The notes beneath the pieces are model-generated. The model was not told the origin of the DNA and did no database searches. It was given only the letters and a program-made list of their open reading frames with translations. DNA of 64,000 bases from an uncultured bacterium (lineage in GTDB: Bacteria > Bacillota_I > Bacilli_A > RFN20 > CAG-826). Both the position numbers and the translations under genes were made by a program. The stretch is taken from positions 352,149 to 416,148 of the forward strand of contig CASFZN010000018.1 of the NCBI GenBank assembly GCA_949299195.1, given 5' to 3'. Shown piece after piece: positions 6,695-60,635 of this stretch. Each line of letters opens with the position of its first letter. Position 1 is the first letter of the stretch.

Positions 6695-6707
6695 AAATAG
6701 TAGACTT

Positions 6708-31569: not shown

Positions 31570-31743
31570 TTACCCCTTTTATAAATAAAAGATAAAATGC
31601 GATATTTATCGCATTTTTTCTTTATATAAAAACAAGTTAAAATGCTTTATAATTATATGGGTACGATTTTCTTTTAATATTTAATTAATAAATATTAAAG
31701 AAATGTAGAAAAAGTATTGATTTCTCTAGGAGGTAGTTAAAAA

Positions 31744-32964: not shown

Positions 32965-32997
32965 CTTTAAGCTTTATTTTGTGTTTAAGGAGAAAAT

Positions 32998-33558: not shown

Positions 33559-33563
33559 AATAT

Positions 33564-34064
33564 ATGGAAAACAAAGACGTAGAATTATTAAGCAAATCAA
33601 TTATAGATACCAATAAAATTGGAGAAATTATCGCAAAACATTTAAAAGAAAAAGATGTAATTCTTTTAAGTGGAGATTTAGGAGCAGGGAAAACCTCTTT
33701 AACTAAAGCTATCGCTAAGGGGTTAGGAATTAAAGAGGAAGTAAATTCCCCTACCTTTAATATTTTGAAGTGTTATTTTAAAGATACTAACGATTCAAAA
33801 TTAAGTCTATACCATATCGATGCTTATCGACTTGAAGATGTTAATGAAGAAAATAAAAATATTGGTTTAGAAGAAGTAATTGATGGAGATGGAGTCGCAA
33901 TTATTGAATGGCCTCAATTTATTGAAGAATTTATTGATAAAAATCTATCATTAAATATTCAAATTACTATCAATAATATCGATAATTCTCGTAATTTTAA
34001 TATATCTACTATTTCTAATAGATACGATGAATTAATTTGTGATTTAATTAGAAATTTTAAATAA
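33564..34064 (+). CDS. tsaE: tRNA threonylcarbamoyladenosine biosynthesis ATPase TsaE
   Basis: 'LSGDLGAGKTSLTKAIAKGLGI', 'VNSPTFNIL'. Confidence 0.8.
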   Translation: MENKDVELLSKSIIDTNKIGEIIAKHLKEKDVILLSGDLGAGKTSLTKAIAKGLGIKEEVNSPTFNILKCYFKDTNDSKLSLYHIDAYRLEDVNEENKNIGLEEVIDGDGVAIIEWPQFIEEFIDKNLSLNIQITINNIDNSRNFNISTISNRYDELICDLIRNFK

Positions 34065-34084
34065 AAAGAAGGGAAAAAGAAAAA

Positions 34085-34708
34085 ATGAAATACTCTTTAT
34101 TACTTGATACTTCAAATAAATTATTAGTAGTTGGGCTAGCAAAAAACGACGAAGTCATCGATTCAATTATATATGAATGTTTTCAAAGACAATCAGAGTT
34201 TATGATTTTAAAGATTGAAGAAATCTTAAAAAGAAATAATGTCGAACCTAAAGAAATTGGCGAAATAGTCGTTACTTTAGGACCTGGAAGCTATACGGGA
34301 ATTAGAATCGCATTAACTATTGCAAAAATCTATAGTTATACCCTCAACATTCCTTTATATGCCATTTCTTCTTTATATATATTAAAGGATAAGAATAACC
34401 CTTCGATTTGTTTAATGAATGCAAGAAGTAAAAGAAGCTACATCGGGGTTTACGAAAATAATAAGGTCTTATTAAAAGACCAAGTTATGAAAAACGAAGA
34501 TGTAATCGAATATATTGCTTCCCATAAAGATTATAAAGTGTGTGGTGATATTGAATATCTTTTCGATTCCAACTTTAATTTAGAAAATAATAAGGACGAA
34601 ATTGTTTTAAATCCAGACCTTTTAAATAACATGTTAGAAGGAAAAACTTTAGAAAATAGTAGGGTAGAAAATATTCTTTCCCTAAAAGCGATTTATTTAA
34701 AAGATTAA
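34085..34708 (+). CDS. tsaB: tRNA threonylcarbamoyladenosine biosynthesis protein TsaB (YeaZ)
   Basis: 'LLLDTSNKLLVVGL', 'VTLGPGSYTGIRIALTIAK'. Confidence 0.8.
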   Translation: MKYSLLLDTSNKLLVVGLAKNDEVIDSIIYECFQRQSEFMILKIEEILKRNNVEPKEIGEIVVTLGPGSYTGIRIALTIAKIYSYTLNIPLYAISSLYILKDKNNPSICLMNARSKRSYIGVYENNKVLLKDQVMKNEDVIEYIASHKDYKVCGDIEYLFDSNFNLENNKDEIVLNPDLLNNMLEGKTLENSRVENILSLKAIYLKD

Positions 34709-34714
34709 TGGTTT

Positions 34715-35194
34715 ATGAAAATAACTCTTTTACATTTAAATAAAGAAGAAATCTTAAAAAATAAGGATTTAATCGTTAATTCTTTAATTGAAATTGAGAA
34801 CACTTCATATAATGAAGGATTAAAAGAACACGAAATTAAATACGAATTAATCGAAAATCCAGTGAGCGAATTTATTATTGCTATTGATAAAGAAAATAGC
34901 GATAAAATCGTTGGATATTTAGATTTTTGGATTACTTTTGATTCTGCAACTGTGTTTAAAATAACGGTCTTAGACACCTATAGAAAATTAGGAATTGGGA
35001 CCATATTAATAAATAAAAGTTTAGAAATTTTAAAAGAAAACGAAGTTTTATACTATACACTTGAAGTTAGAGAGTCTAATACAAATGCGATAAATCTCTA
35101 TAAAAAGTGTGGTTTTAAAGAAATTGTAAAAAAAGACAAATATTATAAAGATGGCGAAGATGCCATCTATATGGTGAAAGGAATTTATGGGTAA
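34715..35194 (+). CDS. rimI: ribosomal-protein-alanine N-acetyltransferase (GNAT)
   Basis: GNAT motif 'VLDTYRKLGIGTILI', 'LEVRESNTNAINLYKKCGF'; conserved tsaB-rimI-tsaD context. Confidence 0.75.
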   Translation: MKITLLHLNKEEILKNKDLIVNSLIEIENTSYNEGLKEHEIKYELIENPVSEFIIAIDKENSDKIVGYLDFWITFDSATVFKITVLDTYRKLGIGTILINKSLEILKENEVLYYTLEVRESNTNAINLYKKCGFKEIVKKDKYYKDGEDAIYMVKGIYG

Positions 35195-36218
35195 CTTAAA
35201 AAAAGATGAAATTATATTAGGAATTGAATCAAGTTGTGATGAAACTGCAATTGCTATTATTAAAAATGATGAATTAATAGCAAATGTAATTTCTTCCCAA
35301 ATTGAAGTCCATCAAAAATACGGCGGAGTTATGCCAGAAATTGCTTCTAGACTTCATTTAGAAAATATCGCTGTCGTTTTAGATAGCGCTTTAAAAAAAG
35401 CAGATATTAAAATGGAAGATGTTTCTGCCATTGCTTTTACTCGTGGGCCTGGATTAATCGGAGCTTTACATGTAGGACTTCAAGCTGCTAAAACTTTATC
35501 TTTAATTTATAACATTCCTTTAATTCCTGTTCATCATTTAGCAGGTCATATATATGCGAATGAATTTGTAGAAAAGGTAGAATTTCCTTTACTTGCTGTT
35601 GTAGTAAGTGGCGGAAATACTGAGCTAGTTTATATGAAAGACCACTTTGATTTTGATATTATTGGCGAAACTAAAGACGACGCAATCGGAGAAAGTTTCG
35701 ATAAAGTTGCAAGAGTTTTAGGACTCCCTTATCCAGGAGGAGTTGCGATTGATAAACTATCAAAAGAAGGAAAACATACCTATAAATTACCTACTCCACT
35801 ACATGATGATTCATTAAATGTATCATATTCTGGACTTAAAACCGCAGTAATTAATCTTATTCATAAAGAAGAAGTTAACAGCAACGAAATTAGAGTTGCT
35901 GATATGGCTAAATCATTCCAAGATGTCGCGGTTAATGAAATCATTTTAAGAGTCAAAAGAGCTAGCGAAAGATATGATTTTAAAGAGGTTGTTTTAGCAG
36001 GAGGAGTCAGTGCTAATTCACATTTAAGAGAAGAAATCGTTAAATTATTTGAAAATAACGATAAAGTAAGGGTAATTATCCCACCACTATGGTGTACAAC
36101 TGATAATGCAGCCATGATAGCAAAGGTTGGAACCTATTTATATAAAAGAAAGATGTTTGCTCCACTTTCAGTAGGAGTAGATCCTTCACGGAAAATTGAA
36201 GATTATGATAAATTTTAA
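35187..36218 (+). CDS. tsaD: tRNA N6-adenosine threonylcarbamoyltransferase TsaD
   Basis: 'ILGIESSCDETAIAII', 'VSGGNTELV', 'GLPYPGG'. Confidence 0.9.
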   Translation: MGNLKKDEIILGIESSCDETAIAIIKNDELIANVISSQIEVHQKYGGVMPEIASRLHLENIAVVLDSALKKADIKMEDVSAIAFTRGPGLIGALHVGLQAAKTLSLIYNIPLIPVHHLAGHIYANEFVEKVEFPLLAVVVSGGNTELVYMKDHFDFDIIGETKDDAIGESFDKVARVLGLPYPGGVAIDKLSKEGKHTYKLPTPLHDDSLNVSYSGLKTAVINLIHKEEVNSNEIRVADMAKSFQDVAVNEIILRVKRASERYDFKEVVLAGGVSANSHLREEIVKLFENNDKVRVIIPPLWCTTDNAAMIAKVGTYLYKRKMFAPLSVGVDPSRKIEDYDKF

Positions 36219-36289
36219 TTATTGATAAACACTAAATTTATTAATAATGATATAATTTTAAGTTATTGAGAGAGAGGTAGAAATTAATT

Positions 36290-37678
36290 ATGGAAAGAGT
36301 GATGAATGTTACAAAAGAATTATTTGTGAAATTGACTCAAAATTCTTTAAAAGATGACGAGAAAGTCTTACTTGAAGGTTGGGTTAGAGGGAATAGAGAC
36401 AATGGTAAAATTGGTTTTATTGAATTTAACGATGGAACTACTTTTAAAAATATTCAACTCGTTTATGATCACGAACTTCTAAGTAAAGAAATATACGATA
36501 AATGCGCGCATTTTAAATATGCAGGAGCAATAAAAGTAGAAGGTAAAATTAAACTTACTCCAGAAAACAAACAACCTTTCGAAGTTGTTGTTATAGATGC
36601 TGAAGTTTTAGGTGATGTTGATGAAGACTATCCTTTGCAAAAGAAAAGACATAGCTTCGAATTTATGAGAGATATCGCATATTTAAGACCAAGAGCTAAT
36701 ACATTCAACGCTTTATTTAGAGTTAGAAACATCCTTGCTTATGCAATTCATAAATTTTTCCAAGAAAGAGGGTTTATGTATGTTCATACTCCACTTTTAA
36801 CAACTAACGACGCTGAAGGTGCAGGTCAAACTTTTAAGGTTTGTGAAGATTTAAAAAATCCAACTGAATTTTTTAACGCAAATACCTCTTTAACAGTTTC
36901 TGGACAACTTCACGTTGAACCTTTTGCTTTAACTTTTAGAGACACCTATACTTTTGGTCCAACATTTAGAGCAGAACATTCAAATACTTCTAGACACGCG
37001 TCAGAATTCTGGATGATTGAACCTGAAATTGCTTTCGCTGATTTAGAAGATGATATGAACTTGATGGAAGACTTCTTAAAATACATCATGTCTTATGTAT
37101 TAGAAAACTGTAAGGAAGAAATGGATTTCTTTAACACCATGATTGAAAAAGGGGTTTTAGATAAAATTCAACATGTTTTAAATTCTCCATTTAAAAGAAT
37201 GACATATACTGAAGGTATTGAAATTTTAAAAGAAGCTGTCAAAAATGGTGAAAAATTTGAATATAATCACATTGAATGGGGAATGGATCTTCAAAGCGAA
37301 CATGAAAGATATTTAACTGAAAAAGTAGTTAAAGGTCCAATGTTTTTAATTGATTATCCAAAAGATATTAAATCCTTTTATATGAAACTAAATAAAGATG
37401 GAAAAACTGTTGCAGCTTGTGACCTTTTAGTTCCTGGAGTTGGAGAAATTTGTGGTGGTTCACAAAGAGAAGACGACTATGAGAAACTAAAAGCAAGAAT
37501 GGAAAAAGAAGGAAATGATAAAACATTAGACTGGTACTTAAATTTAAGAAGATATGGCGGTTGTATCCATTCAGGTTTTGGCCTTGGATTTGATAGACTA
37601 TTGATGTATATGACTGGATTAAGTAATATTAGAGATGTACAACCATATCCTCGTACACCAGGAAGCATTAAATATTAA
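36290..37678 (+). CDS. asnS: asparagine-tRNA ligase
   Basis: class II motifs 'FRAEHSNTSRHASEFWMIEPE', 'GGSQRE', 'GFGLGFDRLLMYMTG'; 462 aa. Confidence 0.9.
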   Translation: MERVMNVTKELFVKLTQNSLKDDEKVLLEGWVRGNRDNGKIGFIEFNDGTTFKNIQLVYDHELLSKEIYDKCAHFKYAGAIKVEGKIKLTPENKQPFEVVVIDAEVLGDVDEDYPLQKKRHSFEFMRDIAYLRPRANTFNALFRVRNILAYAIHKFFQERGFMYVHTPLLTTNDAEGAGQTFKVCEDLKNPTEFFNANTSLTVSGQLHVEPFALTFRDTYTFGPTFRAEHSNTSRHASEFWMIEPEIAFADLEDDMNLMEDFLKYIMSYVLENCKEEMDFFNTMIEKGVLDKIQHVLNSPFKRMTYTEGIEILKEAVKNGEKFEYNHIEWGMDLQSEHERYLTEKVVKGPMFLIDYPKDIKSFYMKLNKDGKTVAACDLLVPGVGEICGGSQREDDYEKLKARMEKEGNDKTLDWYLNLRRYGGCIHSGFGLGFDRLLMYMTGLSNIRDVQPYPRTPGSIKY

Positions 37679-37681
37679 TTT

Positions 37682-37939
37682 ATGGCAAGAATTAAGAAAA
37701 ATAACGACATAAAAGAAGCAAAAACTTCAAGAAAAGTTAAAGATGAGTTCTTAGAAGAAGAAAATGAAGACATTTTAAAAAGAAGAACTACATCTAGAAC
37801 TGTTGAATTTGAAACCATAAAAGAGGAAAAGTCCGTTAATTATGGCAGAAATAAGAAAGTTTTAATCACTTTCTCAATCCTTTCATTTTTCCTTCTTTGC
37901 TATATTGTTTATTTAGTAGTTTGCGCTTTTATTTTCTAA
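37682..37939 (+). CDS. small protein, basic/acidic N-region and single C-terminal TM helix
   Basis: 85-aa ORF tightly following asnS; terminator follows. Confidence 0.35.
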   Translation: MARIKKNNDIKEAKTSRKVKDEFLEEENEDILKRRTTSRTVEFETIKEEKSVNYGRNKKVLITFSILSFFLLCYIVYLVVCAFIF

Positions 37940-37961
37940 TAAAAAATAAGGTTTAATATAT

Positions 37962-37990
37962 AATTAGCCACAGATGTGGCTAATTTTTTT
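37962..37990 (+). terminator. intrinsic terminator
   Basis: TTAGCCACAgatGTGGCTAA + T8. Confidence 0.7.
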
Positions 37991-38129
37991 ACGATAAAAT
38001 TTTTAAAATAGTATGCTATAAAAAAAGTCGATATATCGGATAGAATAGTATCATTATTAAACAAATCATCTAACCATTTTTTATTTTATGAGCTTTCTTT
38101 ATATAGTAAAATGTTAGAAATCGCTAAAT

Positions 38130-38729
38130 ATGTTTTTAGACAAATTACGAACTGCAGTTAAATCCAAAAAGATATCAATTTTCACAGTAGTAGGAATCAT
38201 TATTTCTACTTTTTCATCATTAAATAAACTTTTTATTTTATATAATAGCTTCGCGGTTTATCTTTGTTTTTTCAATATTTTACTAATTATTACTAAAATC
38301 GAATGTATCTATGGAATTATTGATAACGATAACGAAGCTTTATATTATGCTAGAAATATTGTTAATGGAATTTTAGTTTTATGCGCTGGAATTTCTTTTG
38401 TAATTTATACCGTTATTGTCTTAATTTTTAGGGCATACCACGAAGAATATACTCGATTTGAAGGCCTTTATTTAGCTACTTTAGCATTTGTAGAAATCGT
38501 TATTGCTATTATCTTTTTTGTTAAAGATCGCCAAAAATCTCATTATTTAAAAACAATGAGGATTTCTAATCTTTTGTTGGCCTTTTCTGCTTTATTAACT
38601 GCTCAAATTTCGATTCTTTCTTTTACTGGAAATGATAGTTATTTAGGAAGTATTATTTTTGGAATGGTAATAGGAATTTCTTCGATTGGATGCGGGATTT
38701 ATATTATTTTATCCCTAAATATGGATTAA
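38130..38729 (+). CDS. hypothetical polytopic membrane protein
   Basis: 199-aa ORF, 5-6 TM helices. Confidence 0.4.
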   Translation: MFLDKLRTAVKSKKISIFTVVGIIISTFSSLNKLFILYNSFAVYLCFFNILLIITKIECIYGIIDNDNEALYYARNIVNGILVLCAGISFVIYTVIVLIFRAYHEEYTRFEGLYLATLAFVEIVIAIIFFVKDRQKSHYLKTMRISNLLLAFSALLTAQISILSFTGNDSYLGSIIFGMVIGISSIGCGIYIILSLNMD

Positions 38730-39091
38730 TTAACCATGATTATAATAAGTTTAAATTAGTAGACCCTTCTTTAAATAAAATTATAGATTTTGGTGAAGAA
38801 CAAAGAGTACATCGACTTCCTTTAAAAAGAGGTAAATTATCATATACTTTTTATTATGAATATATGGTAGATGTTGATAAAAAAGAAATTGAAGGCATTA
38901 TTATTAAAGAAAGCGTTTGGTTTAAAAAACTTAATATTTATATCAAAATATTGATTTACTTTTTTATTTTTATGCGGATTATTCCCTTTATAATTCTTCA
39001 TATTGCTTTAGGAGTAAGAAGAATTAATTTACATAAAAAACTCGAAGCCTTGATGAAGGAAAATGGCTTCGAGTTAATAGAATATAATTAA
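38690..39091 (+). CDS. hypothetical protein with C-terminal TM region (overlaps previous gene by 40 nt; doubtful)
   Basis: only in-frame start is ATG at 38690 inside the upstream gene; 133 aa. Confidence 0.25.
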   Translation: MRDLYYFIPKYGLINHDYNKFKLVDPSLNKIIDFGEEQRVHRLPLKRGKLSYTFYYEYMVDVDKKEIEGIIIKESVWFKKLNIYIKILIYFFIFMRIIPFIILHIALGVRRINLHKKLEALMKENGFELIEYN

Positions 39092-39104
39092 AATATTAAA
39101 TAAT

Positions 39105-39773
39105 TTATTCCCCACTATTTTCATCAATATTTGATAAATTATTGGTGTTATAGAAGGAAGATAGATCCATTTCTTCAAGTTTTGCGCTAAATAAACTCTT
39201 AGATAATTTTTTAATATATAGTTTTCTAGCAATATAAGCTTGAGTAACAACAAGATAATAAATTGTACCCACTACTAAGGTTAAGAAGATGAAATAGTTA
39301 AATATTTTTTCATCGGTAAATGGCTCTGGAGTTAACCAAACCCACGAATCAAAGTTAGATCCAAATGGAGGATAATACTTAACACTAGAAAAATCTAATA
39401 TATATAATAAGGATGCAATTCCAGTTTCTCTATCAAAGATAGATTCTAACCAATTTCCATAAATTGAGTGGTAAATGATATATAAAATTAAACAAGTTAA
39501 TAAAATAATAAATGGTGCAATTGATTGTTTATAAAATCTTTCAAGAGATTTTTGATAAGCAATAGTTTTAAATTCTTCTGGAGTTTTAATTATCCTAGAA
39601 ACAACAAGTTTTCCCATGTCTTTATCAACTGCTTTAGCTTGTTTTTTCATGGTGTATCTAATTAAGTTTCCTAATAAGCCAATTAAGACAAATAAAAATA
39701 AAAGTACCGCAATTATTACTAAAATAACTTTCCACGTGGAAACTTTTGCATCAAAAATGATAAAATTAAACAT
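39105..39773 (-). CDS. hypothetical membrane protein; translationally coupled (TAATG) to upstream gene; contains a copy of the CACGTG palindrome in its 5' coding region
   Basis: RBS aaaaggaggga inside upstream gene's 3' end; stop/start overlap TAATG; 'DAKVSTWKV' encoded by ACTTTCCACGTGGAAACT. Confidence 0.45.
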   Translation of the reverse strand: MFNFIIFDAKVSTWKVILVIIAVLLFLFVLIGLLGNLIRYTMKKQAKAVDKDMGKLVVSRIIKTPEEFKTIAYQKSLERFYKQSIAPFIILLTCLILYIIYHSIYGNWLESIFDRETGIASLLYILDFSSVKYYPPFGSNFDSWVWLTPEPFTDEKIFNYFIFLTLVVGTIYYLVVTQAYIARKLYIKKLSKSLFSAKLEEMDLSSFYNTNNLSNIDENSGE

Positions 39774-40360
39774 TAGTCATCCCTCCTTTTTAATGAGTGA
39801 GGACCATAATAATCTGGCTTTTGAGTCTCTTCAATATCATCGTCATCAATTAGATATTTTGTTTCTTCGTTTTCTTCAAATTCATCAATACTTTCATCAC
39901 TATAAGAATAAGAAGGTTCATTTTTTCTTTTAAGTTTATGTTCAACTAAAGGTGTTTCGATTTCTTCAATATATTTAGCGCTTTCATGATGATTGGCAAA
40001 ATAATTTGGATCTTTCTCTAATAATTCTTTGGTTCTTTTTAAATCATTGGGATTAGTAAGAATTATGTTATTGGTCGTGTTATAAACAATTTTTGTTCCT
40101 TTATCACTTTCAACGGAAGGAAGAGAAGAATTTTCTTCTTTTGTACCACTATTTTGTTTTAAGTATCGAGAGTTTTCTAAAATTTTATCAGCTTTATCGT
40201 CTAATTCTTTATTCTTTTTCCTATTTATGAGCCTTTCAAAAGTATAAATTATGCATCTAAAAAATAAATAAACGGCATAAACTATAAGATAAACTAATAA
40301 AAACGGAAGAAGAATAATATATAAAATTCCTAATCCTATGGTCTTAAAAAAATCTTTCAT
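39773..40360 (-). CDS. hypothetical protein, N-terminal TM helix and acidic C-terminal tail
   Basis: 195-aa ORF; 'EEIETPLVEH...DESIDEFEENEETKYLIDDDDIEE'. Confidence 0.4.
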   Translation of the reverse strand: MKDFFKTIGLGILYIILLPFLLVYLIVYAVYLFFRCIIYTFERLINRKKNKELDDKADKILENSRYLKQNSGTKEENSSLPSVESDKGTKIVYNTTNNIILTNPNDLKRTKELLEKDPNYFANHHESAKYIEEIETPLVEHKLKRKNEPSYSYSDESIDEFEENEETKYLIDDDDIEETQKPDYYGPHSLKRRDD

Positions 40361-40407
40361 ATCGATAATATTTTAAATAACAATTTTCTTTTTATAAATA
40401 GATGAAT

Positions 40408-41325
40408 TTAATTTATTCTCTTTTTATTCATTCTTCTTATGATAAGTTCAATAAAATCTGATAAAACGACTAAAATAGTAGGGATTATAAAAAAGAAAAA
40501 CAAATTAAATGTAGGAACATATGCTCCAATTACAAAAAATAAAGTCATAGAGATAAAAATACCTATTCCAAAAGTAACTATATAATTTAATCTATCATTT
40601 CTTTTTAAGTCTTCGTTTACAATATTCACCCCAATTATAAATATCAAAAGAATTAAAATAAGTAGATAATTATCGATATTTAATGTTAATAAAATAATCG
40701 AAGGAATAAATAAAACAATTACTAAAATCCCTAATATTTCTTTACTATATTCATAACTATTAAACTCTAGATTAAACCTTTTTATCTCATATTTAATAAA
40801 TAAATAGGTTAAAAAGATAATAATGAAACTATAGGAATAGATAAAAAAGTTCAAATAATATAAGAAATCTTCATTATTATGAAGATTAAATATTCTTAAT
40901 AATAAATTAAGAATATCATCATTATAAATAAAGTTAATAACTTCAATTCCTATAAGAGTAAAGATAAATAAAGCAATACTAGATAATAAAATTGTTAAGT
41001 ATTTATCGAATCTTTTATCTATTGATAACGAAAATAAAAAAGAAATTAGTAATGAAGGTAGAAAACTAATAAAAAAATAAGAAAAATCAAATATGGTAAT
41101 AAGTAAAGAAAGGGGAATAATTATTAAAACATAATAAAGATAATACCTTTTCTTTATAAAAGTAGCTAAAAGAGTTGAAGTTAAATAGATAAATAGATTT
41201 AAAAATACCCTCGTAACTGTAACATATGTTCCAACTCCTAATAAAATAAGATTAAGGGCAATAATTAATGAAATTAAAGGCAAAGCCTCTTTTAAAGAAG
41301 TTCGATATTTTAATAATCTTTTCAT
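40408..41325 (-). CDS. hypothetical polytopic membrane protein (about 9 TM helices)
   Basis: 305-aa extremely hydrophobic ORF. Confidence 0.45.
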   Translation of the reverse strand: MKRLLKYRTSLKEALPLISLIIALNLILLGVGTYVTVTRVFLNLFIYLTSTLLATFIKKRYYLYYVLIIIPLSLLITIFDFSYFFISFLPSLLISFLFSLSIDKRFDKYLTILLSSIALFIFTLIGIEVINFIYNDDILNLLLRIFNLHNNEDFLYYLNFFIYSYSFIIIFLTYLFIKYEIKRFNLEFNSYEYSKEILGILVIVLFIPSIILLTLNIDNYLLILILLIFIIGVNIVNEDLKRNDRLNYIVTFGIGIFISMTLFFVIGAYVPTFNLFFFFIIPTILVVLSDFIELIIRRMNKKRIN

Positions 41326-41432
41326 ACCTTAATCAATTTTATAATTAACCTTTAAATCTTGTCACTATTTTTAAAAACATTATAAATATAAATATTTATA
41401 ATAATTTTGATTTATTATAAGATATTAAAGTT

Positions 41433-43570
41433 ATGAATTTAAAAACCTTACTCAACGATAAACAATACGAAGCTGTAACTTCTTCATTTAAATATAATAG
41501 AATTATAGCTGGAGCAGGAAGTGGTAAAACCCGTGTTTTAACCTACCGTCTTGCACATTTAATTAATGATAAAAATATTGATCCTTATAACCTTTTAGCA
41601 ATTACTTTTACTAATAAAGTTGCAAAAGAAATGTTAAATAGAACCGAAGAATTACTCGGAAACATCGATATTAGTAGTTTAAAAATATCTACCTTCCACT
41701 CTTTTTGTAGTTATTTTTTAAGAAACGAAATCTATCACATCAACTTTCCTAGATCTTTTGTAATTATTGATGATAATGAAAGTGAAAACATGATTTATTA
41801 TTCCTTTACTAGTTTAGGTCATGAGATTAAAAAAGGAGATACCTTAGTTAAATCCACCATTAGATTTATTGCTAAAAATAAAACTAAAGGCCTTCTTCCT
41901 AGCGATATCAAAGAAGAAGATTTAGTTAGTGAAGAAATGAAAATCATGTATGAAGCTTTTAAAGAATATGAAAAAAATAAAGTTAGAAGTTATGCTTTAG
42001 ATTTTGATGATTTACTTATTTATACCGCAATATTTTAAGAGAATTTAGTGACGTAAAAGAAAAATATAATACTCGCTTTAAAGAGATTTTAGTCGATGAA
42101 TTCCAAGATACAAACGATTTACAGTTTAAACTTTTAACTCTTTTAGTAGGAAAAGACACAGGGCTTTATGTTGTAGGAGATCCTGATCAAACTATCTATA
42201 CCTGGAGAGGCGCTAATTTAAGAGTTATTTTAGATGTAGAAAAATATTTTAGGGGCTTACAAACTTTTATTTTAGACGAAAACTATCGTTCAACTAAAAA
42301 TATTTTAACCGCTGCTAATAAGCTTATTATTCATAATGCTGAAAGGGTAAAAAAAGATTTATTTACTAAAAACGAAAGTCGAGAAGAAGTAAGCTTTTTT
42401 ACAGCCCAAACTGATTTTGAAGAAGCTAGAAAAGTCGTTCAAAAAATACGTGAATTAACTGTAAAAAACGATGCAAAATATTCGGAAATTGCCATTCTTT
42501 ATCGATCGGCATATCTTTCTCGTCCTTTCGAACAAATTTTAATGAAAGAAAGAATTCCATATCGCGTTTATTCAGGAACAAAATTCTATGATAGAAGAGA
42601 AGTTAAAGATGTTTTAGCCTATCTTTCTTTATTAACTAATCCCAAAAACGATGTAGCTTTTGAAAGAGTTTATAACGTTCCTAAAAGAGGAATTGGAGAT
42701 GTTTCGTATGCAAAATTTAAACAAGAAGCATATGAATTAAACTTAAATTTATATCAATACGCTTTAGATTTATATAAATATGATTCTGAGGTTAGTAAAA
42801 AATCTCAAAATGCCTTATCTACCTTTGTTTTAAAATTAGAAAAAGCTAATGATTTACTTGAAGGAGAACACACTTCTCAAGAATTTTCTGGCATAATGCT
42901 CGACTTTTTAAATGACATTAAATATTTTGACTATCTTCAAGAAAATGAAGAAGATGGCGATGATAGAGCTTTAAACGTCAGATCTTTAATTAGCGATATT
43001 GCTAATACAGTAACTGGAAAAAATGCGATAAGTATCGAAGAATATTTACAAAACGTTACTTTATTAACTTCTCAAGATGATATTGTTAATGATGGTGATT
43101 CAATCACTTTAATGACCTGCCATACTGCTAAGGGTTTAGAGTTTAACTATGTTTTCGTAGTTGGATTAAATAAAGATGTTTTCCCAAATTATCGTGCTCT
43201 TCAAGAAGGAAAAGAAAGAGAAGAGGAAGAAAGAAGATTAGCCTATGTTGCCTTTACTCGTGCTAGAAAAATACTCTATTTATCTTGTAATTTAGGGCAT
43301 TCATTTATTAGTGGCACCACTAATGAAGTTTCTCAATTTGTTATTGAAGCCGGATTATCGCTTAAACCTAAAAACTCCTTTATCAAGGTAGGAAAAGAAA
43401 ATTTATATTCTTTCGATTTTAATAAATTTATGGAGGAAAAGAAAAAAATCGAAGAAGAAGAGCGAAAAGAAAGAGTTATAGGAACTTCATTTAAAAATAA
43501 TATAAAATGGAGTGTAGGCGATTTGATAAATCATAAAACTTTTGGAAAAGGAAAAATCAATAAATTATAA
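41433..43570 (+). pseudogene. UvrD/PcrA-type helicase paralog (pcrA-1) disrupted by a -1 frameshift in the T4 run at 42033-42036
   Basis: N-terminal 201 aa with 'IAGAGSGKTRVLTYR', stop at 42036; frame +2 continues 'REFSDVKEKYNTRFKEILVDEFQDTN...VVGDPDQTIYTWRGAN...ENYRST...TCHTAKGLEF...LAYVAFTRARK'; colinear and about 65-70% identical to intact pcrA at 50515. Confidence 0.7.
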
Positions 43571-43658
43571 AAAGAATTTTAAAATATTTTTAACTTTCAC
43601 TATTCTTTCAATATTATTATTTATATATATACTATATTTAGTAGTAATGACAATTATA

Positions 43659-43694
43659 TCTTTAATCGGTTATACCGATTAAAGATTTTTTTTA
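43659..43694 (+). terminator. intrinsic terminator after pcrA-1
   Basis: TCTTTAATCGGTtatACCGATTAAAGA + T8. Confidence 0.7.
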
Positions 43695-43793
43695 TATAAC
43701 AGCAATAAAAATTTTTACAGTGTAAAATCACGATTGATATCGTATTTTTTTCTTAATTATCAAAAATAGTCATAAATATAAATTAAGTCTTGC

Positions 43794-43803
43794 GGGGGGG
43801 GGG
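43794..43803. repeat. poly-G(10) homopolymer tract in the putative promoter spacer of the sipW island
   Basis: gcGGGGGGGGGGct between candidate -35 TTGCGG (43790-43795) and -10 TATAGT (43814-43819), 18-nt spacer. Confidence 0.6.
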
Positions 43804-43883
43804 CTTTAAATAGTATAGTTTTAATCAAATAAAGTTATTTTTAGGCTTTTATGCAAATTTTTATGATGGGGGATTAAAATTTT

Positions 43884-44492
43884 ATGCTAAAAAGAAAACT
43901 TTTAATGACAATTTTACCAGTATTAAGTGCTGCAGTTATTGTTGGCACCGGTTTTAGTGCTTGGCACTTTGGAAATACAACAGACAGCGAAACTTTAAAT
44001 GCTAATGTTGTTGTTACTGAAAAAGTTAATCATCATATTGACCTTACAGTTAATACAGAAATGACAAGATTACTTCTTGATCAAGGCTCCACCGATGGTG
44101 TTAGAGATGAAGGAATTACTTTTACTAATGATAATCACGAAGCTAATAAAGGTGTTTTAACAATTAATCTTGCTTCTTCAAGCGCAAAAACAGACTATAC
44201 ATTAACTGTTAGAATTGATCCAGATGAAGCTTTAAATAAATATCTTGAATTTGTAGAAGATGCAACAATTGATGGTTGGGCTTGGTCTAAAGCAAGTCAA
44301 ACTTTAACTCGAGATGTTACATTAACCGATGGGAAAGCAACTGTTACTTTAGATTTAGGTGATGAAACAGACAAACATAACGCATTATTTAACTATACAG
44401 ATGTTAAACCAAGAAATTCAGATGATTATGATACAATGGTTGCAGCATTAGAAAATGCTAAAGTTGTATTTACAGTCACTGTTAGTGAATAA
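43884..44492 (+). CDS. TasA/camelysin-like secreted protein with SipW-cognate-type signal peptide (copy 1)
   Basis: N-terminus 'MLKRKLLMTILPVLSAAVIVGTGFSAWHFGN' resembles TasA 'LVGGGTWAAFND'; sipW two genes downstream; RBS tgggggatt. Confidence 0.5.
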   Translation: MLKRKLLMTILPVLSAAVIVGTGFSAWHFGNTTDSETLNANVVVTEKVNHHIDLTVNTEMTRLLLDQGSTDGVRDEGITFTNDNHEANKGVLTINLASSSAKTDYTLTVRIDPDEALNKYLEFVEDATIDGWAWSKASQTLTRDVTLTDGKATVTLDLGDETDKHNALFNYTDVKPRNSDDYDTMVAALENAKVVFTVTVSE

Positions 44493-44614
44493 TTAATATT
44501 TTTATATGGATAGAGTCTATTTCTAGGACTCTATCCATATTCTTTATTTATTAGATTTATTAAATATGAAATAAGATTTTTATCTTACTTCTTTAAGTAA
44601 CAACAAGTAGTAAT

Positions 44615-47386
44615 ATGAGTAAGTTTAAAAAAATATTAATACCTATTTTTACTTTATTAACAGCACTTACTATCTTAGTGCCTTCTTTTGCGTTATCTTA
44701 TTTCATATTTAATAAACCTGATGAAACAATTAAAGACGTAAATAACGGCCCTAATAGATATGATGATATAAAAGAAAATTATAGTGGTGAAAATAATTCT
44801 TCTAAAACATATACTATTTATTTTTTTCCTTCTACTTTATATGCTCATATCGAATATGAGCATATAATGAATAATACAAATGAATTCACTAATCCTAAAC
44901 CAGAAGAGACTTTCGGATATGTTGAATATGATATGGAAACCGAGACTTTTAGTGAAGTTAAACCTGGGAATCAAAATAATGAATATATCATGAATTCAAA
45001 CCAAAGTTATGGTGATGCTGCTTACTATAATTCAGTATCTAATAGCACGTATCAAGCAGATGAGTATTGTTTTTACAATGATGTTAAGACTTATTTGCAA
45101 AATTTTAACGATTATAATGGAAGCATACCTGAAGAATTACAACCTTATAGTGATGCTTGGAATGATTTTGGTAGGGATTATGGATTGCCTGAAGATTTTA
45201 ATAAAACTTATTCAAATGGTGATAGAACAGGCAACCATTATAAGTTTAGGAATGATCGTCTAGGATATCGGCCAAATAAAAACCCTGAAAATAATGGCGA
45301 GATTGGAATAGGCGAAGGAAGATATTTACCTATAAAAGTAACGATTAAAGATACTTTACCAATGTATGTTTATAATCATATAGTCGAATATAAGCCAATG
45401 GCTGATATGGGTGATAGTTCTTCAGGTGAAAGAGCATGGTATAATTTCTCTTTTGCAGGATGGGGTTATTTTGACGAAAGCAAAAATTTTAGTGCTCCAA
45501 AAACAACTTTCGAAGAAAACGAACAATTTAATTATGATGATAATTATGTTCAAGATTCTTTTACTTCAGGAGATTGTAATAATATTTTCGATATTTTGAA
45601 CGATTTAAGTGAATACGATCCGGACGGGGATGGAATTATAAAATTGTTTCCTATTTTTAGTAATGGGAAAAAATACGGATTAAATAATGATACGGTCCAT
45701 TTAGGTGGTAGGGATGCTTTAAAGTTAACGTATCAATTAAAAGATGGATATAGTTATGAAACAAATGAACAATATTTTTTGTATTCAACCGATAAAATAT
45801 CTTACACAGAAGACAATATTGAAGTAACTTATGCTTCGATTAATAATATTAACCTCGATTTTGATAAATACGAAAATATGAAAATACAAGGTGCCGCTTT
45901 AGGTTTAGAAGGTGCCGGCGATTGGACTGGGACTTGGAGTAATTTATTGCTTGATTCTAAATATATTATAGGTGCAAATAATAGTTCTTATGAAGTTATA
46001 AATAATTTTGGCGAAGGTTTATATAATATTTATATTTTTACTGTATCCCCAACCATACATGGTGAGTATGTTGAGGGCTATCGTAATTATGAGTCTTTTG
46101 AAAATGTGGACGCTACAAACACTGCTTTAGAAAAATATAGCAATTTTATTAGTAATGATTTGCTCTCAAATATTGTTCAAGATTATATGCTATTTAAGAC
46201 TTTAAAAAATAAAGATTTGGAGTTTATTCAATCAAATCCAGTTTCTATTGGTAAAGATAGTAAAAATGTTGTTAATGATGGATTGTATCAATATATTACT
46301 AACACTTACGTTAATTCCAAATGTGTTATCGCTATTGAAAAAATTACTGAATCTAAATTTATTCAAAGTGTTGATATTGGAAATAATATAGCATCACAAA
46401 CTGAAGGTGATAACTATGATTTAGCATCTTCAATGTTATACGTTAAAGAGCCGGTATATTTAGGAAATTCGTTTGATACTAAAAGTATTAGGTTAGGACA
46501 AGGAATAGAACAAGACCATGTTGTTATTACCGATGTTGATGCTAATCTAGTTAATAATGAATTTAATAGTATTACGAATAAAGTTGACTTAAAAGAAGAT
46601 GTTGTTTTACTTAGAAACGTTGATTTTACAAACTATTCAACATTAAGGGAAGCTGCTTTTCAAATAAGGTTATTTGAAAAGTATCAAAGCATTTTAAATT
46701 TTATTGAGACAGATGAAAGTAATTTAAAATTAAGTGGTAATAGTAGTGCACAAACTTTTGAAGCTTTAATCTATAATCCTAAGGATAATAATTTAAATGC
46801 AAGCAATATTTTCTTAGATGCTTCTTATTATTTTAATTTAGTTAATGCTGGTGAAAATATAACTTTAAATAGTGATGGTGTAACATATGATGTCGATCAA
46901 AGAGTATATGTTCCACGTCATACTTCATATTTAGGTATGTATGATTTTATGCTTTATCATAATAAAGAAAATAATACTTATAAATTATATGCATATCGTC
47001 ATTCAAATGCGACTATTAGAGTTTTTACAGAAGATCAAGAAGATAATAACAATGATGGTTACGTTGATGTAAATGATACTCAATTAATATGGCAAAGAAA
47101 TACAAATATTGGTTCATATGCCGAAATTTATGATCAAGGGACGTGTGGAGAAGCTTCCGGAGATTTAAATGGTAGTGAATCAAGTTTTGAAAATGTTATT
47201 ACTCATTATTTAAACGATAAAGAAATAGGAACTTATTATCTTAGAGATCATGTTACTGGAATTGATTTATTTGAAATAATAAAAGATGAAGAAGGTAATA
47301 TCGAATTTAATCAATTATTAACTAATTTTAGAATTCGTAAATCTTATATCTTTTATTTAACAACTGAAAAAGTATTAGGAGAATAA
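44615..47386 (+). CDS. large (923 aa) secreted/surface protein with N-terminal signal-anchor, N/Y/D-rich; contains a DxDGDG Ca-binding-like loop
   Basis: 'MSKFKKILIPIFTLLTALTILVPSFALSYF'; 'EYDPDGDGIIKLFP'; no recognisable catalytic motif. Confidence 0.5.
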   Translation: MSKFKKILIPIFTLLTALTILVPSFALSYFIFNKPDETIKDVNNGPNRYDDIKENYSGENNSSKTYTIYFFPSTLYAHIEYEHIMNNTNEFTNPKPEETFGYVEYDMETETFSEVKPGNQNNEYIMNSNQSYGDAAYYNSVSNSTYQADEYCFYNDVKTYLQNFNDYNGSIPEELQPYSDAWNDFGRDYGLPEDFNKTYSNGDRTGNHYKFRNDRLGYRPNKNPENNGEIGIGEGRYLPIKVTIKDTLPMYVYNHIVEYKPMADMGDSSSGERAWYNFSFAGWGYFDESKNFSAPKTTFEENEQFNYDDNYVQDSFTSGDCNNIFDILNDLSEYDPDGDGIIKLFPIFSNGKKYGLNNDTVHLGGRDALKLTYQLKDGYSYETNEQYFLYSTDKISYTEDNIEVTYASINNINLDFDKYENMKIQGAALGLEGAGDWTGTWSNLLLDSKYIIGANNSSYEVINNFGEGLYNIYIFTVSPTIHGEYVEGYRNYESFENVDATNTALEKYSNFISNDLLSNIVQDYMLFKTLKNKDLEFIQSNPVSIGKDSKNVVNDGLYQYITNTYVNSKCVIAIEKITESKFIQSVDIGNNIASQTEGDNYDLASSMLYVKEPVYLGNSFDTKSIRLGQGIEQDHVVITDVDANLVNNEFNSITNKVDLKEDVVLLRNVDFTNYSTLREAAFQIRLFEKYQSILNFIETDESNLKLSGNSSAQTFEALIYNPKDNNLNASNIFLDASYYFNLVNAGENITLNSDGVTYDVDQRVYVPRHTSYLGMYDFMLYHNKENNTYKLYAYRHSNATIRVFTEDQEDNNNDGYVDVNDTQLIWQRNTNIGSYAEIYDQGTCGEASGDLNGSESSFENVITHYLNDKEIGTYYLRDHVTGIDLFEIIKDEEGNIEFNQLLTNFRIRKSYIFYLTTEKVLGE

Positions 47387-47400
47387 AAAGGAGAGTAATT

Positions 47401-48345
47401 ATGGGTGGACAATCTAAATTAGTAATTATCGCTTTAATTGTTTCGATATTTGTAATTATAGGTTTAACTATAGTATTTTGTTTCTTATTCTTTTTATATT
47501 CTTTTTATAAAAGTAAACATATTAAATTTGGATTTGAGGATGAAGAATTAAATAAAGAAATTACAACAACTTTATATAAAGTAAATTCTAAAAGATTAAA
47601 GAAAAATAAATCGTTATTAAGATATAACGATATTATTAAAAACGAACATTCATTAACAACTAAATTGCATATATTCATGAATATTGTTTCTAGTGTTGTC
47701 ATTGCTATATTAACTGCAATTTTTATAACTGCACTAGTTTATAGGGTAAATAATGATAATTTATTTATCGGTAATTCTACTTATATGACTATTTTAACTT
47801 CCTCAATGGAATGTAGAAATGAAAAAAATGAATATCTTGATGAATATAATTTAGATGATCAAATCTTGCAATATTCTTTAGTTGGTGTCGAAAAAATAGA
47901 AAAAGAAGAAGATTTGAAATTATATGATATCGTAGCCTACGAATATGAAGAAATAGTTATTTTACACCGTATTGTTGCTATAAAAATAGACGAAGAAACT
48001 AATAAAACAATCTATACATTAAAAGGCGATGCTAATGAATCTTCTTTAAATTATGAAAAAGAATTGGAATTTGAAGATTTTATTGGTAAATATAATGGTT
48101 TTCAAAATTATGGATTAGGTGTAACTATAACTTACGTTAAATCTAATATTGGAATTATTGCTATTTTAAGTGCTGCTATTTTCTTATTTTTAACAACTTT
48201 TGCTGAAGATATGATCAATAAAGAATATAAGAATAGATTGTCACTTTTAGCTGATGATAAATATTTAATTGTTGATTTAAAAGAATTGGCTAAATCAAAA
48301 TACGGAAAAAAGAAAAAGGTAGAAGAAAAAGAAGATGAGAACTAA
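47401..48345 (+). CDS. sipW: type I signal peptidase of the SipW (ER/archaeal) type, with extra N-terminal TM helices
   Basis: catalytic Ser box 'ILTSSMECR', His box 'VILHRIVAI', 'LKGDANES'; TM helices at both ends; RBS aaaggagag. Confidence 0.65.
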   Translation: MGGQSKLVIIALIVSIFVIIGLTIVFCFLFFLYSFYKSKHIKFGFEDEELNKEITTTLYKVNSKRLKKNKSLLRYNDIIKNEHSLTTKLHIFMNIVSSVVIAILTAIFITALVYRVNNDNLFIGNSTYMTILTSSMECRNEKNEYLDEYNLDDQILQYSLVGVEKIEKEEDLKLYDIVAYEYEEIVILHRIVAIKIDEETNKTIYTLKGDANESSLNYEKELEFEDFIGKYNGFQNYGLGVTITYVKSNIGIIAILSAAIFLFLTTFAEDMINKEYKNRLSLLADDKYLIVDLKELAKSKYGKKKKVEEKEDEN

Positions 48346-49027
48346 AAGATTTTTAACATTTTTCACTATTTTAAGTGCTATTGCTTCTATTTCGATAATT
48401 GGAACGGGTTTTGGAGCCTGGTATTTTGGTTCATCTTCTGGAAGTAAAGAAAATAATGTTAATGTTGTAATTAACGATGCTTATGAATTTTGTGATTATA
48501 AAATATATTACCCAAATATTTATTATATTGAATCGAATTTAGAAAATTTATCTACTTATGGTGGGCTTGTTTTTTATAATACAGACGAAACTATATTTAA
48601 AGTAGAAGGAGAAGGAAGCGGAGAATTAAATTACACCTTAACTAGTTCGGTAATGATTTCTTTTAATCTAAAAAGTTCTGCTATAGTCGATGTAGCTTCT
48701 AAAGATGATGCCTATTTTGATGCTTTACCTGATCCAAGTAATTTTAGAGTTAAATTAAACGTATCTTTAAGCGGTTATTTAGCCAATTGGTTTACCTATA
48801 CAGGTAAAGAAGATTATATTTTTGAATTTCAAAAAGGCAATGCTTATGAAATTACATCGCATTTAGATTATATTTGTTCTAACTGGTTGAATTTAAATGA
48901 TAAATTTGAATTAAAAGAAGATTCTCAGATTACTAATGAAGATGGCATTATTGATTTAAGTAAGATTAAAGATATAGAAGATTTTGGTAAAGTTAATCTA
49001 ACATTTACTTTTATTTCAAATTTATAA
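48335..49027 (+). CDS. TasA/camelysin-like secreted protein with SipW-cognate-type signal peptide (copy 2)
   Basis: 'MRTKRFLTFFTILSAIASISIIGTGFGAWYFGSSSG' shares the GTGFxAW(H/Y)FG motif with 43884 gene; overlaps sipW stop. Confidence 0.5.
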   Translation: MRTKRFLTFFTILSAIASISIIGTGFGAWYFGSSSGSKENNVNVVINDAYEFCDYKIYYPNIYYIESNLENLSTYGGLVFYNTDETIFKVEGEGSGELNYTLTSSVMISFNLKSSAIVDVASKDDAYFDALPDPSNFRVKLNVSLSGYLANWFTYTGKEDYIFEFQKGNAYEITSHLDYICSNWLNLNDKFELKEDSQITNEDGIIDLSKIKDIEDFGKVNLTFTFISNL

Positions 49028-49028: not shown

Positions 49029-50282
49029 TTATAAATCTAAAGGATTATCTTTAAGTAAAAAATCAAATAAATTTAATATTAAATAATTATCTTCATTATA
49101 TGAAGTTAAATAACCTTGTTTTACTATTAATATTTTTTTAGCTCCATTATCTAAATATTTAAATGGACGCAGTTCTTGCTCCAATTTATCTTTATTAGTT
49201 GCATCTAGTGAAACTTGAATGTAATAGGTTTTATTATTCTTTTTAGCTTCGAAATCAATTTCTAATTCTTTTCTAAAACTTTTCTGATTTTTATCTTTTT
49301 GATTAATGATAATACTACCTAAATTAACTTCATAACCTTGAATTATTAATTCGTTATAAATTAGATTTTCAAGTAAATGCGTTTCTTCTAATTGATTAAA
49401 ATTTAAAATAGCATTTCTAATTCCTAAATCTTTAAAATAATATTTTTTATTCGAATTAATGAATTTTTTGCCTTTTAAATCTTTACGAATAATTTTTTCT
49501 ATTAAAAAAGAATCTTCCAAAGTATCAATATATTTTTCTATAAGATAAGTTGATATTTTTTTGTTTTTTAAACTCTTAAAAGTGTTAGAAATTTTTAAAG
49601 CTGAAAATCTAGACCCGATTGAAGAAGAAAGAACAAGCACTAATTCGTTAAAATCAATTTTATTTCTAATATTATTTTTTATTATTAAATCTTTTAAATA
49701 AGTTTCTTTATAAACGCTTATTAAATATTCTTTTTTATCATTTTCATTATTAAATTCAATTAATTTTGGGAGCCCACCATAAGTTATGTAATCTTTATAA
49801 GCATCTTCTAATTTTTGATGAGAATTCTTATAGAATTCTTTAAAAGATAATGGGTAAATTTTAATTTCGACACCTCTATCATTAAACTCGGTTAAGATAT
49901 CTTTTGAAAGAAATTTTGCATTGCTGCCTGATACAAAAACATTAAGATTAGAAATGTGATAAAAACCTAATAAAACTGAAGTAAAATTATCTACTAATTG
50001 AATTTCATCGAGTATTAAATAATAAATTAGATTATCTTTAATATTATTTAATACAAAATTATATAAATTATCTGAGTTTAAGAGATTTTTATTCTTATAA
50101 TCATCAAATTCTATTCTAATGATATGGTCTTGAAAGATACCACTTTTAATTAAGTAGTTATAAAAGAGTTCGTTTAATAATGTAGATTTTCCTGACCTTC
50201 TTAAACCTGTAACTATTTTAATTCTATTATCGTTAATTTTACTTATTATTTTTTCTAAATAATTATCACGATTAAATATCAT
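49029..50282 (-). CDS. AAA+ ATPase of AAA_14/DUF4143 family (copy 2); start revised to ATG with AAGGA RBS
   Basis: 'IVTGLRRSGKSTLL' Walker A, 'YLILDEIQL' Walker B; DUF4143-like C-terminal region; ORF-track N-terminal extension (to 50393) is hydrophobic junk overlapping palindromic sites. Confidence 0.65.
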   Translation of the reverse strand: MIFNRDNYLEKIISKINDNRIKIVTGLRRSGKSTLLNELFYNYLIKSGIFQDHIIRIEFDDYKNKNLLNSDNLYNFVLNNIKDNLIYYLILDEIQLVDNFTSVLLGFYHISNLNVFVSGSNAKFLSKDILTEFNDRGVEIKIYPLSFKEFYKNSHQKLEDAYKDYITYGGLPKLIEFNNENDKKEYLISVYKETYLKDLIIKNNIRNKIDFNELVLVLSSSIGSRFSALKISNTFKSLKNKKISTYLIEKYIDTLEDSFLIEKIIRKDLKGKKFINSNKKYYFKDLGIRNAILNFNQLEETHLLENLIYNELIIQGYEVNLGSIIINQKDKNQKSFRKELEIDFEAKKNNKTYYIQVSLDATNKDKLEQELRPFKYLDNGAKKILIVKQGYLTSYNEDNYLILNLFDFLLKDNPLDL

Positions 50283-50303
50283 ATATGATCCTTTTTTATA
50301 ATA

Positions 50304-50317
50304 TTTGCGTCTATACG
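50304..50317. promoter_or_regulatory. 14-bp near-palindrome TGCGTCTATACGCA (operator-like), site 1
   Basis: in divergent intergenic region between DUF4143 ATPase and pcrA. Confidence 0.35.
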
Positions 50318-50379
50318 CATTTTTTCTAAAAATATTATACAATATATAGACTAAAATAAAAAGTATTTTTAAAATTTTT

Positions 50380-50393
50380 GCGTATATACGCAT
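50380..50393. promoter_or_regulatory. 14-bp perfect palindrome TGCGTATATACGCA (operator-like), site 2
   Basis: 76 bp from site 1 (centre to centre), same intergenic region. Confidence 0.35.
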
Positions 50394-52731: not shown

Positions 52732-54747
<2,016 letters not shown>

Positions 54748-54779
54748 AAAGGATAAATATTAAAAAGGAGAGGAAAAGG

Positions 54780-55085: not shown

Positions 55086-55107
55086 TTGGATAAATGAGGA
55101 GAATACT

Positions 55108-56610: not shown

Positions 56611-56613
56611 TTT

Positions 56614-58038: not shown

Positions 58039-58050
58039 GAGGAAGTGGTT

Positions 58051-59394: not shown

Positions 59395-59408
59395 TTATAT
59401 AGAATAGT

Positions 59409-60188: not shown

Positions 60189-60212
60189 GCATTAAAAACT
60201 ATTATGTTATTT

Positions 60213-60626: not shown

Positions 60627-60635
60627 TAAAGATTA

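Follow-up and report, generated by a model that had tools for sequence, protein, structure and literature searches.

Probable in situ displacement of a native pcrA gene by an imported xenolog next to ligA in an uncultured bacterium of the CAG-826 lineage

Introduction

Xenologous gene displacement in situ, in which a gene is replaced at its own position by a distant homolog, is reportedly a concept of Koonin and colleagues, set out by Omelchenko and co-workers in Genome Biology in 2003. PcrA is a core replication, repair and transcription-conflict helicase of Firmicutes-type bacteria. Vertical inheritance is the usual assumption for core genes. Here we describe two pcrA genes, located on the same strand, 9 kb apart and with five genes in between (the island), in a 64,000-nucleotide stretch of DNA from an uncultured bacterium of the CAG-826 lineage (assembly GCA_949299195.1, contig CASFZN010000018.1, positions 352,149 to 416,148). 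This stretch is referred to as the window, and all coordinates given are positions in it; it belongs to one metagenome-assembled genome (MAG) deposited in both ENA and NCBI. The upstream pcrA is broken and the downstream one is intact. Our reading of the locus, to which we assign a probability of roughly 0.8, is that the native pcrA was displaced in situ by an imported xenolog and was left behind as a remnant.

The term xenologous gene displacement is found in the literature (PMC9425974; PMC1274311). In homology-facilitated illegitimate recombination (HFIR), one end of a foreign segment is joined by homology and the other illegitimately at a microhomology of 3-10 bp (PMC3240628; PMC6382021), the work on this process including that of De Vries and Wackernagel (2002) and Prudhomme et al. 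(2002), as cited in PMC6382021. In Vibrio cholerae, type VI effector modules are displaced one after another, and immunity genes remain behind as orphans (PMC5361080). At the present locus, process and protein family alike are already known, and the locus is a well-resolved example, not a new kind of system: the swap of a core gene for a foreign homolog of 51% identity can be read base by base, with its junctions, a mosaic ligA gene, the ancestral state and three states of the remnant.

Results

The broken upstream pcrA is native and the intact downstream copy is foreign

A protein search with the repaired product of the upstream copy revealed 98% identity to P0001, an intact PcrA of 741 aa with a Tudor domain, all other matches being at most 54% identical. 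P0001 is encoded by the sole pcrA on the contigs L002, L003 and L004, which derive from island-free sister strains in other samples. On these contigs the genes upstream of pcrA are the same as in the window, and pcrA lies directly before ligA-gatCAB without any island, the ancestral order being asnS, a small membrane protein gene, a 320-aa gene, three minus-strand genes, pcrA, ligA and gatCAB. Based on the 98% identity to the only pcrA of the sister strains, the broken upstream copy is therefore the resident ortholog, and the intact downstream pcrA is foreign. The two copies are xenologs joined by horizontal transfer and not products of a duplication. An initial annotation of this DNA had taken the broken gene for a second paralog and the downstream pcrA for the resident gene, which is the reverse of what was found. 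It had also left to be checked whether relatives carry one copy or two: the island-free strains L002-L004 carry one intact pcrA, and the island-bearing strains carry the remnant together with the foreign copy.

Comparison of the window with L002 at the DNA level gave 98% identity over positions 31433-43555 and again about 98% from approximately 53654 to 62732, whereas the DNA between 43555 and approximately 53654 was unalignable or only 45-85% identical. The gene position directly upstream of ligA is occupied by the native allele in L002 and L004, by the foreign copy in the window, and by the species' own pcrA in L011, a contig of a related species from the same study; the native remnant of the window no longer adjoins ligA. 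The L011 pcrA product (P0008) was 82% identical to that of the downstream copy, the next best match reaching 61%. The possibility that the native pcrA is itself an older, abnormally divergent xenolog was considered and rejected, as scaling by ligA predicts approximately 57% identity to L011 and the observed 51% represents no clear anomaly.

The upstream copy is one gene with an internal frameshift and a missing 3' end

The features of the two pcrA genes are as follows.

41433-43570, plus strand: native pcrA remnant, codons 1-708 of 741 followed by the junction tail INKL and a stop; interrupted at codon 198; Pfam UvrD-helicase and UvrD_C
42025-42026, plus strand: frameshift site, CC as compared with CCC in all other alleles, leading to the TAA at 42036-42038
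50515-52731, plus strand: imported intact pcrA, 738 aa, 51% amino acid identity to the native allele and 82% to the L011 pcrA; all UvrD-family domains

The first half of the upstream gene is an open reading frame (ORF) of 201 codons (41433-42038), and the second half is open for 511 codons in the -1/+2 frame (42035-43570). The initial annotation rightly placed the frame-0 stop at 42036 and described the other frame as continuing in register: the two halves match the NCBIfam model TIGR01073 at profile positions 4-192 and then 197-693, and they therefore constitute one interrupted gene. The repaired product of 712 aa was colinear with the 738-aa downstream PcrA over 715 columns with 14 gaps, which bears out the earlier description of two colinear PcrA/UvrD genes flanking an island; they are not too divergent to be aligned. 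Their identity, estimated by eye at 65-70%, indeed amounts to 68.7% for nucleotides, but is only 51% for the proteins.

At the lesion, intact alleles read TAT ACC CGC AAT ATT TTA AGA (LIYTRNILREF) and the window reads TATACCGCAATATTTTAAGA, one C of the CCC run in codon 198 being gone. This run was uninterrupted in the five other alleles aligned, namely those of L002, L003, L004 and of two island-bearing strains, L005 (another ENA MAG) and L093 (a Logan assembly of ERR10610563). The loss had initially been attributed to one T of the run at 42033-42036; this run is only the place where the shifted frame runs into the stop, and the residues 'AIF' in the window translation are already out of frame. 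The description of the copy was otherwise right, except that a truncation had been overlooked. Homology to the intact allele ends at position 43555, in codon 708 of 741; with the last 33 codons gone, the C-terminal Tudor domain is for the most part missing, and all island-bearing alleles end in the INKL tail formed by the junction. In the native copy of the window, the match to the Tudor model PF21196 breaks off after about 14 of 42 positions; the model scored 33.8 bits in P0001, above the cut-off of 23.9 bits, and 16.9 bits, below the cut-off, in the foreign copy, with the residues aligning.

In the window native copy, helicase motifs II-VI are located downstream of the frameshift and cannot be translated. 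The first start codon in the downstream frame is 169 codons in, past motifs II-III. In P0001 (native allele) and in P0010 (foreign copy), PF00580 and PF13361 were detected in this order with E-values of 1e-72 to 1e-81, and GSGKT (Walker A), DEFQD, GDPDQTIY and VAFTRA (motif VI) were invariant columns in an alignment including both alleles. TIGR01073 gave 647 bits with the foreign copy and 159 and 422 bits with the native fragments. Although none of these scores reached the equivalog cut-off of 911.2, PcrA was the top NCBIfam model in each case. The best solved-structure match of the downstream PcrA was PcrA 1pjr (1.4e-120), and the assignment to PcrA is based on the best model match, this PDB match and synteny.

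The imported block and its junctions

About 1.0 kb of the ancestral locus, comprising the last 33 pcrA codons, the spacer and the first ~305 ligA codons, was swapped for about 10.1 kb of foreign DNA (43556 to ~53653). Besides the imported pcrA, the block and its borders comprise the following features.

43541-43555, plus strand: left junction, last bases shared with native pcrA, TTTGGAAAAGGAAAA, codon 708; from a three-way comparison of window, L002 and L011
43551-43682, plus strand: remnant of the donor small-membrane-protein gene, its 3' 43 codons (EKSINYKKNFKIFLTF...); 32 of 38 residues equal residues 39-77 of a 77-aa ORF of L011
43658-43695, plus strand: terminator-like hairpin with a 13-pair stem and a T-run, after the remnant gene
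43884-49027, plus strand: four imported genes (202, 923, 314 and 230 aa), absent from island-free strains; NCBIfam and Pfam scans
49029-50393, minus strand: imported AAA_14/DUF4143 ATPase gene (PF13173, 1.3e-29; PF13635, 3.4e-13), absent from L002 and L011
52735-53653, plus strand: imported 5' part of ligA, ~305 codons, 70-80% nucleotide identity to L002; the gene is a mosaic
53654-53723, plus strand: right crossover interval, inside ligA; dense mismatches to L002 end at 53653 and are sparse thereafter (53673, 53724, 53829...)
53724-54747, plus strand: native 3' part of ligA, ~98% nucleotide identity to L002; the native backbone continues through gatCAB to 62732

At the left junction (43555/43556), pcrA codon 708 is joined to the middle of an unrelated small gene, and this sequence is identical, base for base, in the window, L005 and L093. 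Both partners are A/G-rich, the native one reading GGAAAAGGAAAA and the small gene of L011, which is not the actual donor, AGGAAAGAAAAAG. The donor being unsampled, the exact microhomology at this junction cannot be read. At the right end, ligA identity to L002 shifts from 70-85% to about 98% within the crossover interval, with no gradient. The N-terminal 305 aa of the window ligA product are 90% identical to L011 and 76% to L002, whereas the C-terminal part is 98.5% identical to L002 and 61% to L011, and ligA is therefore a mosaic. The imported pcrA is the only complete PcrA gene at the locus and ends 3 nt upstream of ligA (52735-54747).

In L011, the gene order is asnS, the 77-aa membrane protein gene, a 203/900/313/220-aa cluster, three minus-strand genes, two small genes, pcrA, ligA and gatCAB. 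The small membrane-protein gene is complete there, between asnS and the sipW-like cluster, and the cluster is homologous to the four imported genes with 33-65% amino acid identity. The imported block is a contiguous piece of a related chromosome, extending from the middle of the small gene to approximately codon 305 of ligA. The small-gene remnant matches the 85-aa homolog of the window itself (37682-37939) less well than the L011 ORF; the import thus leaves the genome with its own small membrane-protein gene after asnS and with the 43-codon remnant of the donor gene. An alignment of both pcrA types used to search species-representative genomes for a donor gave a best identity of 47% among the matches listed, and a search with a 305-aa neighbour gene returned only the window's own genome and no further strains.

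The segment between the two pcrA copies had initially been called a sipW island. It does consist of five genes and includes a SipW-type match; this match, in the 314-aa product, is weak (TIGR02228, 38 bits, below the cut-off). No family was found in the 202-, 923- and 230-aa products by NCBIfam and Pfam scans. The N-termini of the 202- and 230-aa proteins (43884-44003 and 48359-48478) are alike, with 42% identity over 40 residues, which is consistent with a putative common signal peptide for the adjoining SipW-like peptidase; apart from this similarity, no paralogs of island genes were found within the window. Between the window and L005, divergence is 3.1-3.7% over positions 43556-44492, which comprise the imported 202-aa gene and the DNA upstream of it, compared with 0.1-0.7% elsewhere in the locus. 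Diversifying selection on a surface protein, or a separate recombination event, could possibly account for this local hypervariable spot. A promoter scan gave fewer promoter-like sites than shuffled controls and is uninformative in such AT-rich DNA, the GC content of the Bacilli/Mollicutes-like MAG being 26.8%.

Independent assemblies share the junctions and reveal three states of the remnant

The foreign pcrA, the mosaic ligA and the right junction recur in L005 and L007-L010, which include ENA, MEGAHIT-style and Logan assemblies and differ from the window at 0.3-0.6% of sites. A protein identical to the imported PcrA was present in seven contigs, each time in the same context. Three island-bearing strains with the same left junction carry the remnant in three different states. 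In L093, the truncated native gene can be read through as a 712-aa ORF that retains all helicase domains; in L005, the CCC run is intact, but codon G420 is changed from GGA to TGA, a change recorded from both ENA and Logan; the window has the C deletion. The two disabling changes are independent, and redundancy followed by independent loss is the course of events that they document. The 90% cluster of P0001 contains nine 741-aa proteins (P0001 and eight others, island-free), the 712-aa P0127, the 419-aa P0123 and the 340-aa P0129, and a related cluster contains a 289-aa fragment, P0133. P0129, from a 2.5-kb ENA contig outside the window, consists of PcrA residues 1-271 fused to a C-terminus resembling Jag/R3H-type RNA-binding proteins and probably derives from a chimeric short contig.

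Substitutions in the remnant were scored against L002. The window has three nonsynonymous and three synonymous changes of its own in addition to the deletion, L005 has six synonymous changes in addition to the TGA, and L093 has one nonsynonymous and one synonymous change. Within the island-bearing clade, 5 of 15 substitutions were nonsynonymous, compared with 80% expected under neutrality (P=1e-4, from small counts), and the pairwise pN/pS of the remnants ranged from 0.07 to 0.31. This suggests that the truncated native copy may have been under purifying selection for some time after the import and that the inactivations are recent. A stronger version, in which the lineage would have long kept two working PcrAs, a native one lacking the RNA-polymerase-binding Tudor domain and a full-length foreign one, with the frameshift and the nonsense mutation as first losses, appears unlikely to us. 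If true, two retained PcrAs would amount to a natural separation-of-function experiment on PcrA.

TGA usage bears on the L005 allele. Among about 60 window ORFs of at least 100 codons, 52 stop at TAA and eight at TAG. No credible gene of the window ends with TGA, the single TGA-ended stretch being antisense to 21203-22252, and no in-frame TGA was found in credible window ORFs, tryptophan always being encoded by TGG (53 codons). The genetic codes 4 and 25, under which the L005 TGA would be a sense codon, were rejected on these grounds. UGA may be unassigned or avoided, for example through loss of RF2, and a codon that is neither stop nor sense might be relevant to the idea of two working PcrAs. 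L002 and L011 show the same TGA usage.

Other interrupted or helicase-like genes of the window

Two further split genes were noted. What is one 320-aa gene of unknown function in L002, L003 and L093 is represented at 38130-39091 by two overlapping ORFs of 199 and 133 aa, and the window has CCC at ~38713-38715 where its relatives have CCCC, about 3.3 kb from the pcrA deletion. At 13688-15057, an aldehyde dehydrogenase gene is seemingly split: the 310-aa ORF at 14125-15057 matches PF00171 at positions 184-461 only, and the N-terminal part is in another frame (ORF 13688-14005), with the switch in an A-rich stretch near 13930-13990. Two large ORFs of 761 and 1248 aa at 4409-10454 share short nucleotide matches with pcrA (6768-6803 and 7756-7865); they probably encode an AddAB-type helicase-nuclease pair and would not be pcrA paralogs in the sense used here.

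Discussion

A model for the exchange

From the geometry of the two junctions we infer HFIR, a one-sided homologous recombination, as the most likely mechanism at this locus. Incoming linear DNA would have been integrated by RecA-type homeologous recombination between two diverged ligA sequences at the right end; at the left end, in pcrA codon 708, it would have been joined illegitimately through a short A/G-rich microhomology. Through the exchange the cell gained a complete foreign PcrA, correctly placed before ligA, and kept a Tudor-less native PcrA of 712 aa, and this redundant native copy is now disappearing independently in separate strains. The broken gene is a redundant native copy on its way out, and its state calls for no special mechanism; of the three explanations offered by the initial annotation, that of a decaying copy, although not of a decaying duplicate, is the best supported.

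Alternative explanations

Several other origins of the two-copy arrangement were weighed. Colinear copies on one strand, separated by 9 kb, could be true paralogs that arose by tandem duplication in this genome and diverged afterwards; this candidate was rejected and is hardly credible, since the copies are 51% identical to each other whereas the upstream copy shares 98% with the one pcrA of the sister strains, these strains have no second copy at the locus, and the divergent block reaches beyond pcrA as far as ligA and contains genes that are in synteny with those of another species. A chimeric metagenome assembly, jumping between two co-occurring species, is conceivable insofar as L011 comes from the same study and conserved ligA stretches would allow an assembler to switch. 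The left junction, however, links codon 708 to a sequence 7 kb upstream of the other pcrA through only ~12 nt of low-complexity similarity, the same junctions were found in independent assemblies from several samples whose strains are 0.3-0.6% apart, and the foreign block occurs in no other context among the sampled genomes, all of which makes this explanation highly improbable. Some integrative elements truncate the 3' end of a gene and supply a replacement, and the present insertion does cut the 3' end of a housekeeping gene and provide another. Nevertheless, it is very unlikely that the island is a site-specific mobile element which inserts at the 3' end of pcrA and carries a pcrA of its own: in NCBIfam and Pfam scans, none of the island ORFs matched an integrase, recombinase or transposase family, no att-like, direct or inverted terminal repeats were found to flank the island, the right boundary is a gradient-free switch inside ligA as is typical of homologous exchange, and the block is colinear with the chromosome of a related species from asnS through pcrA-ligA.

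Other alternatives concern the interruption itself. Short homopolymers (CC and TTTT) lie near the shift and the downstream frame is open for 511 codons, and it had initially been suggested that the gene might be phase-variable or dependent on slippage. Known contingency tracts and slippage sites are far longer than C2/C3 or T4. There is no in-frame X XXY YYZ heptamer at the shift, the CCC run keeps five other alleles in frame, another strain is disabled by a base substitution and not by slippage, and the late first start codon of the downstream frame lies beyond motifs II-III; switching through a phase-variable homopolymer, or programmed slippage during translation or transcription, can thus be regarded as extremely improbable. 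That the truncated copy was kept so that two PcrAs divide the work, the lesions being sporadic recent losses or errors, agrees with the pN/pS values, with the deficit of nonsynonymous substitutions since the island-bearing strains split and with the open ORF of L093. This idea is doubtful: of the three island-bearing alleles sampled, two have been inactivated, each at its own site, the counts are small, and recombination with island-free strains could bring in substitutions already filtered by selection. The last point also weighs against our own reading of the locus, as such recombination could by itself produce the signal of purifying selection, and so do several others. The nearest foreign-type pcrA is only 82% identical and P0010 is alone in its 90% cluster, so the actual donor is unsampled; as no credible window gene stops at TGA, the effect of the L005 TGA is deduced, and TGA is not a sense codon either. 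In addition, the C deletion is recorded in a single MAG (ENA and NCBI copies), the source of the 201- and 342-aa fragments, and is supported by no Logan assembly, and the second lost C of the window (CCCC to CCC at 38713, which breaks up a gene that L002, L003 and L093 have in one piece), together with the split gene at 13688-15057, could mean a systematic assembly error. The missing C would then be an assembly or sequencing error, and the strain would carry an open, truncated 712-aa pcrA like L093, with the structural story unchanged. The initial annotation had envisaged a homopolymer error that hides a second helicase; an error is possible for the missing C, but its correction restores only the 3'-truncated version. 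We consider such an error possible but not probable. The MEGAHIT-style names (k87_...) of sister contigs from the same study and the agreement with Logan suggest, by inference only, short reads, in which 1-bp errors at C3 are rare, and the ~21 kb of comparable sequence contain hundreds of far longer A/T runs in which no indel was seen. Moreover, both verified window-specific coding indels lie in likely dispensable genes and tsaD, asnS, ligA and gatCAB are free of them, three of the six substitutions on the window branch are nonsynonymous, and the independent inactivating change in L005 demonstrates that the gene can be lost. The C deletion is thus probably real; real or not, the gene is a truncated, redundant native copy.

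Comparison with known systems

Displacement of the native pcrA by an imported xenolog has consequences for annotation, as the 'pseudogene' at this locus is the ortholog and the intact gene is the xenolog. With a xenologous pcrA and a mosaic ligA, phylogeny or strain typing of this genome based on either gene would therefore be misleading.

At the level of the proteins, both copies resemble the PcrA/UvrD SF1A helicases (Geobacillus PcrA, 1pjr/3pjr; E. coli UvrD, 2is1) in having UvrD-helicase and UvrD_C domains with their motifs and in matching PcrA best among NCBIfam models and solved structures. Unlike PcrA equivalogs, both are below the NCBIfam cut-off, and the native remnant lacks most of the Tudor domain and is frameshifted in the window. 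As in HFIR, the foreign segment is anchored in a homologous, here homeologous, ligA sequence at one end, and at the other it appears to be joined at a short microhomology, with simultaneous deletion (~1.0 kb) and insertion (~10.1 kb). HFIR was defined by experiments with naturally competent bacteria, in which inserts were for the most part shorter and anchors nearly identical, whereas the anchor here is ~75-85% identical, the insert is 10 kb long and the organism is uncultured. The type VI effector modules of V. cholerae are similar in that incoming homologous modules recombine at a conserved flank and leave remnants of the resident genes; in contrast to those accessory toxin/immunity genes under diversifying selection, the gene affected here encodes a core replication and repair helicase.

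The locus fits xenologous displacement in situ, in that the pcrA before ligA was replaced by a distant homolog and the operon architecture was kept: the foreign pcrA shares 82% identity with that of L011 as compared with 51% with the native allele, and the flanks match the sister strains at 98%. Such displacements are usually deduced from phylogeny long after the event. In the present case, by contrast, the displaced gene is still located beside its replacement, and the ancestral state, an open truncated intermediate and two disabled alleles coexist in the sampled strains.

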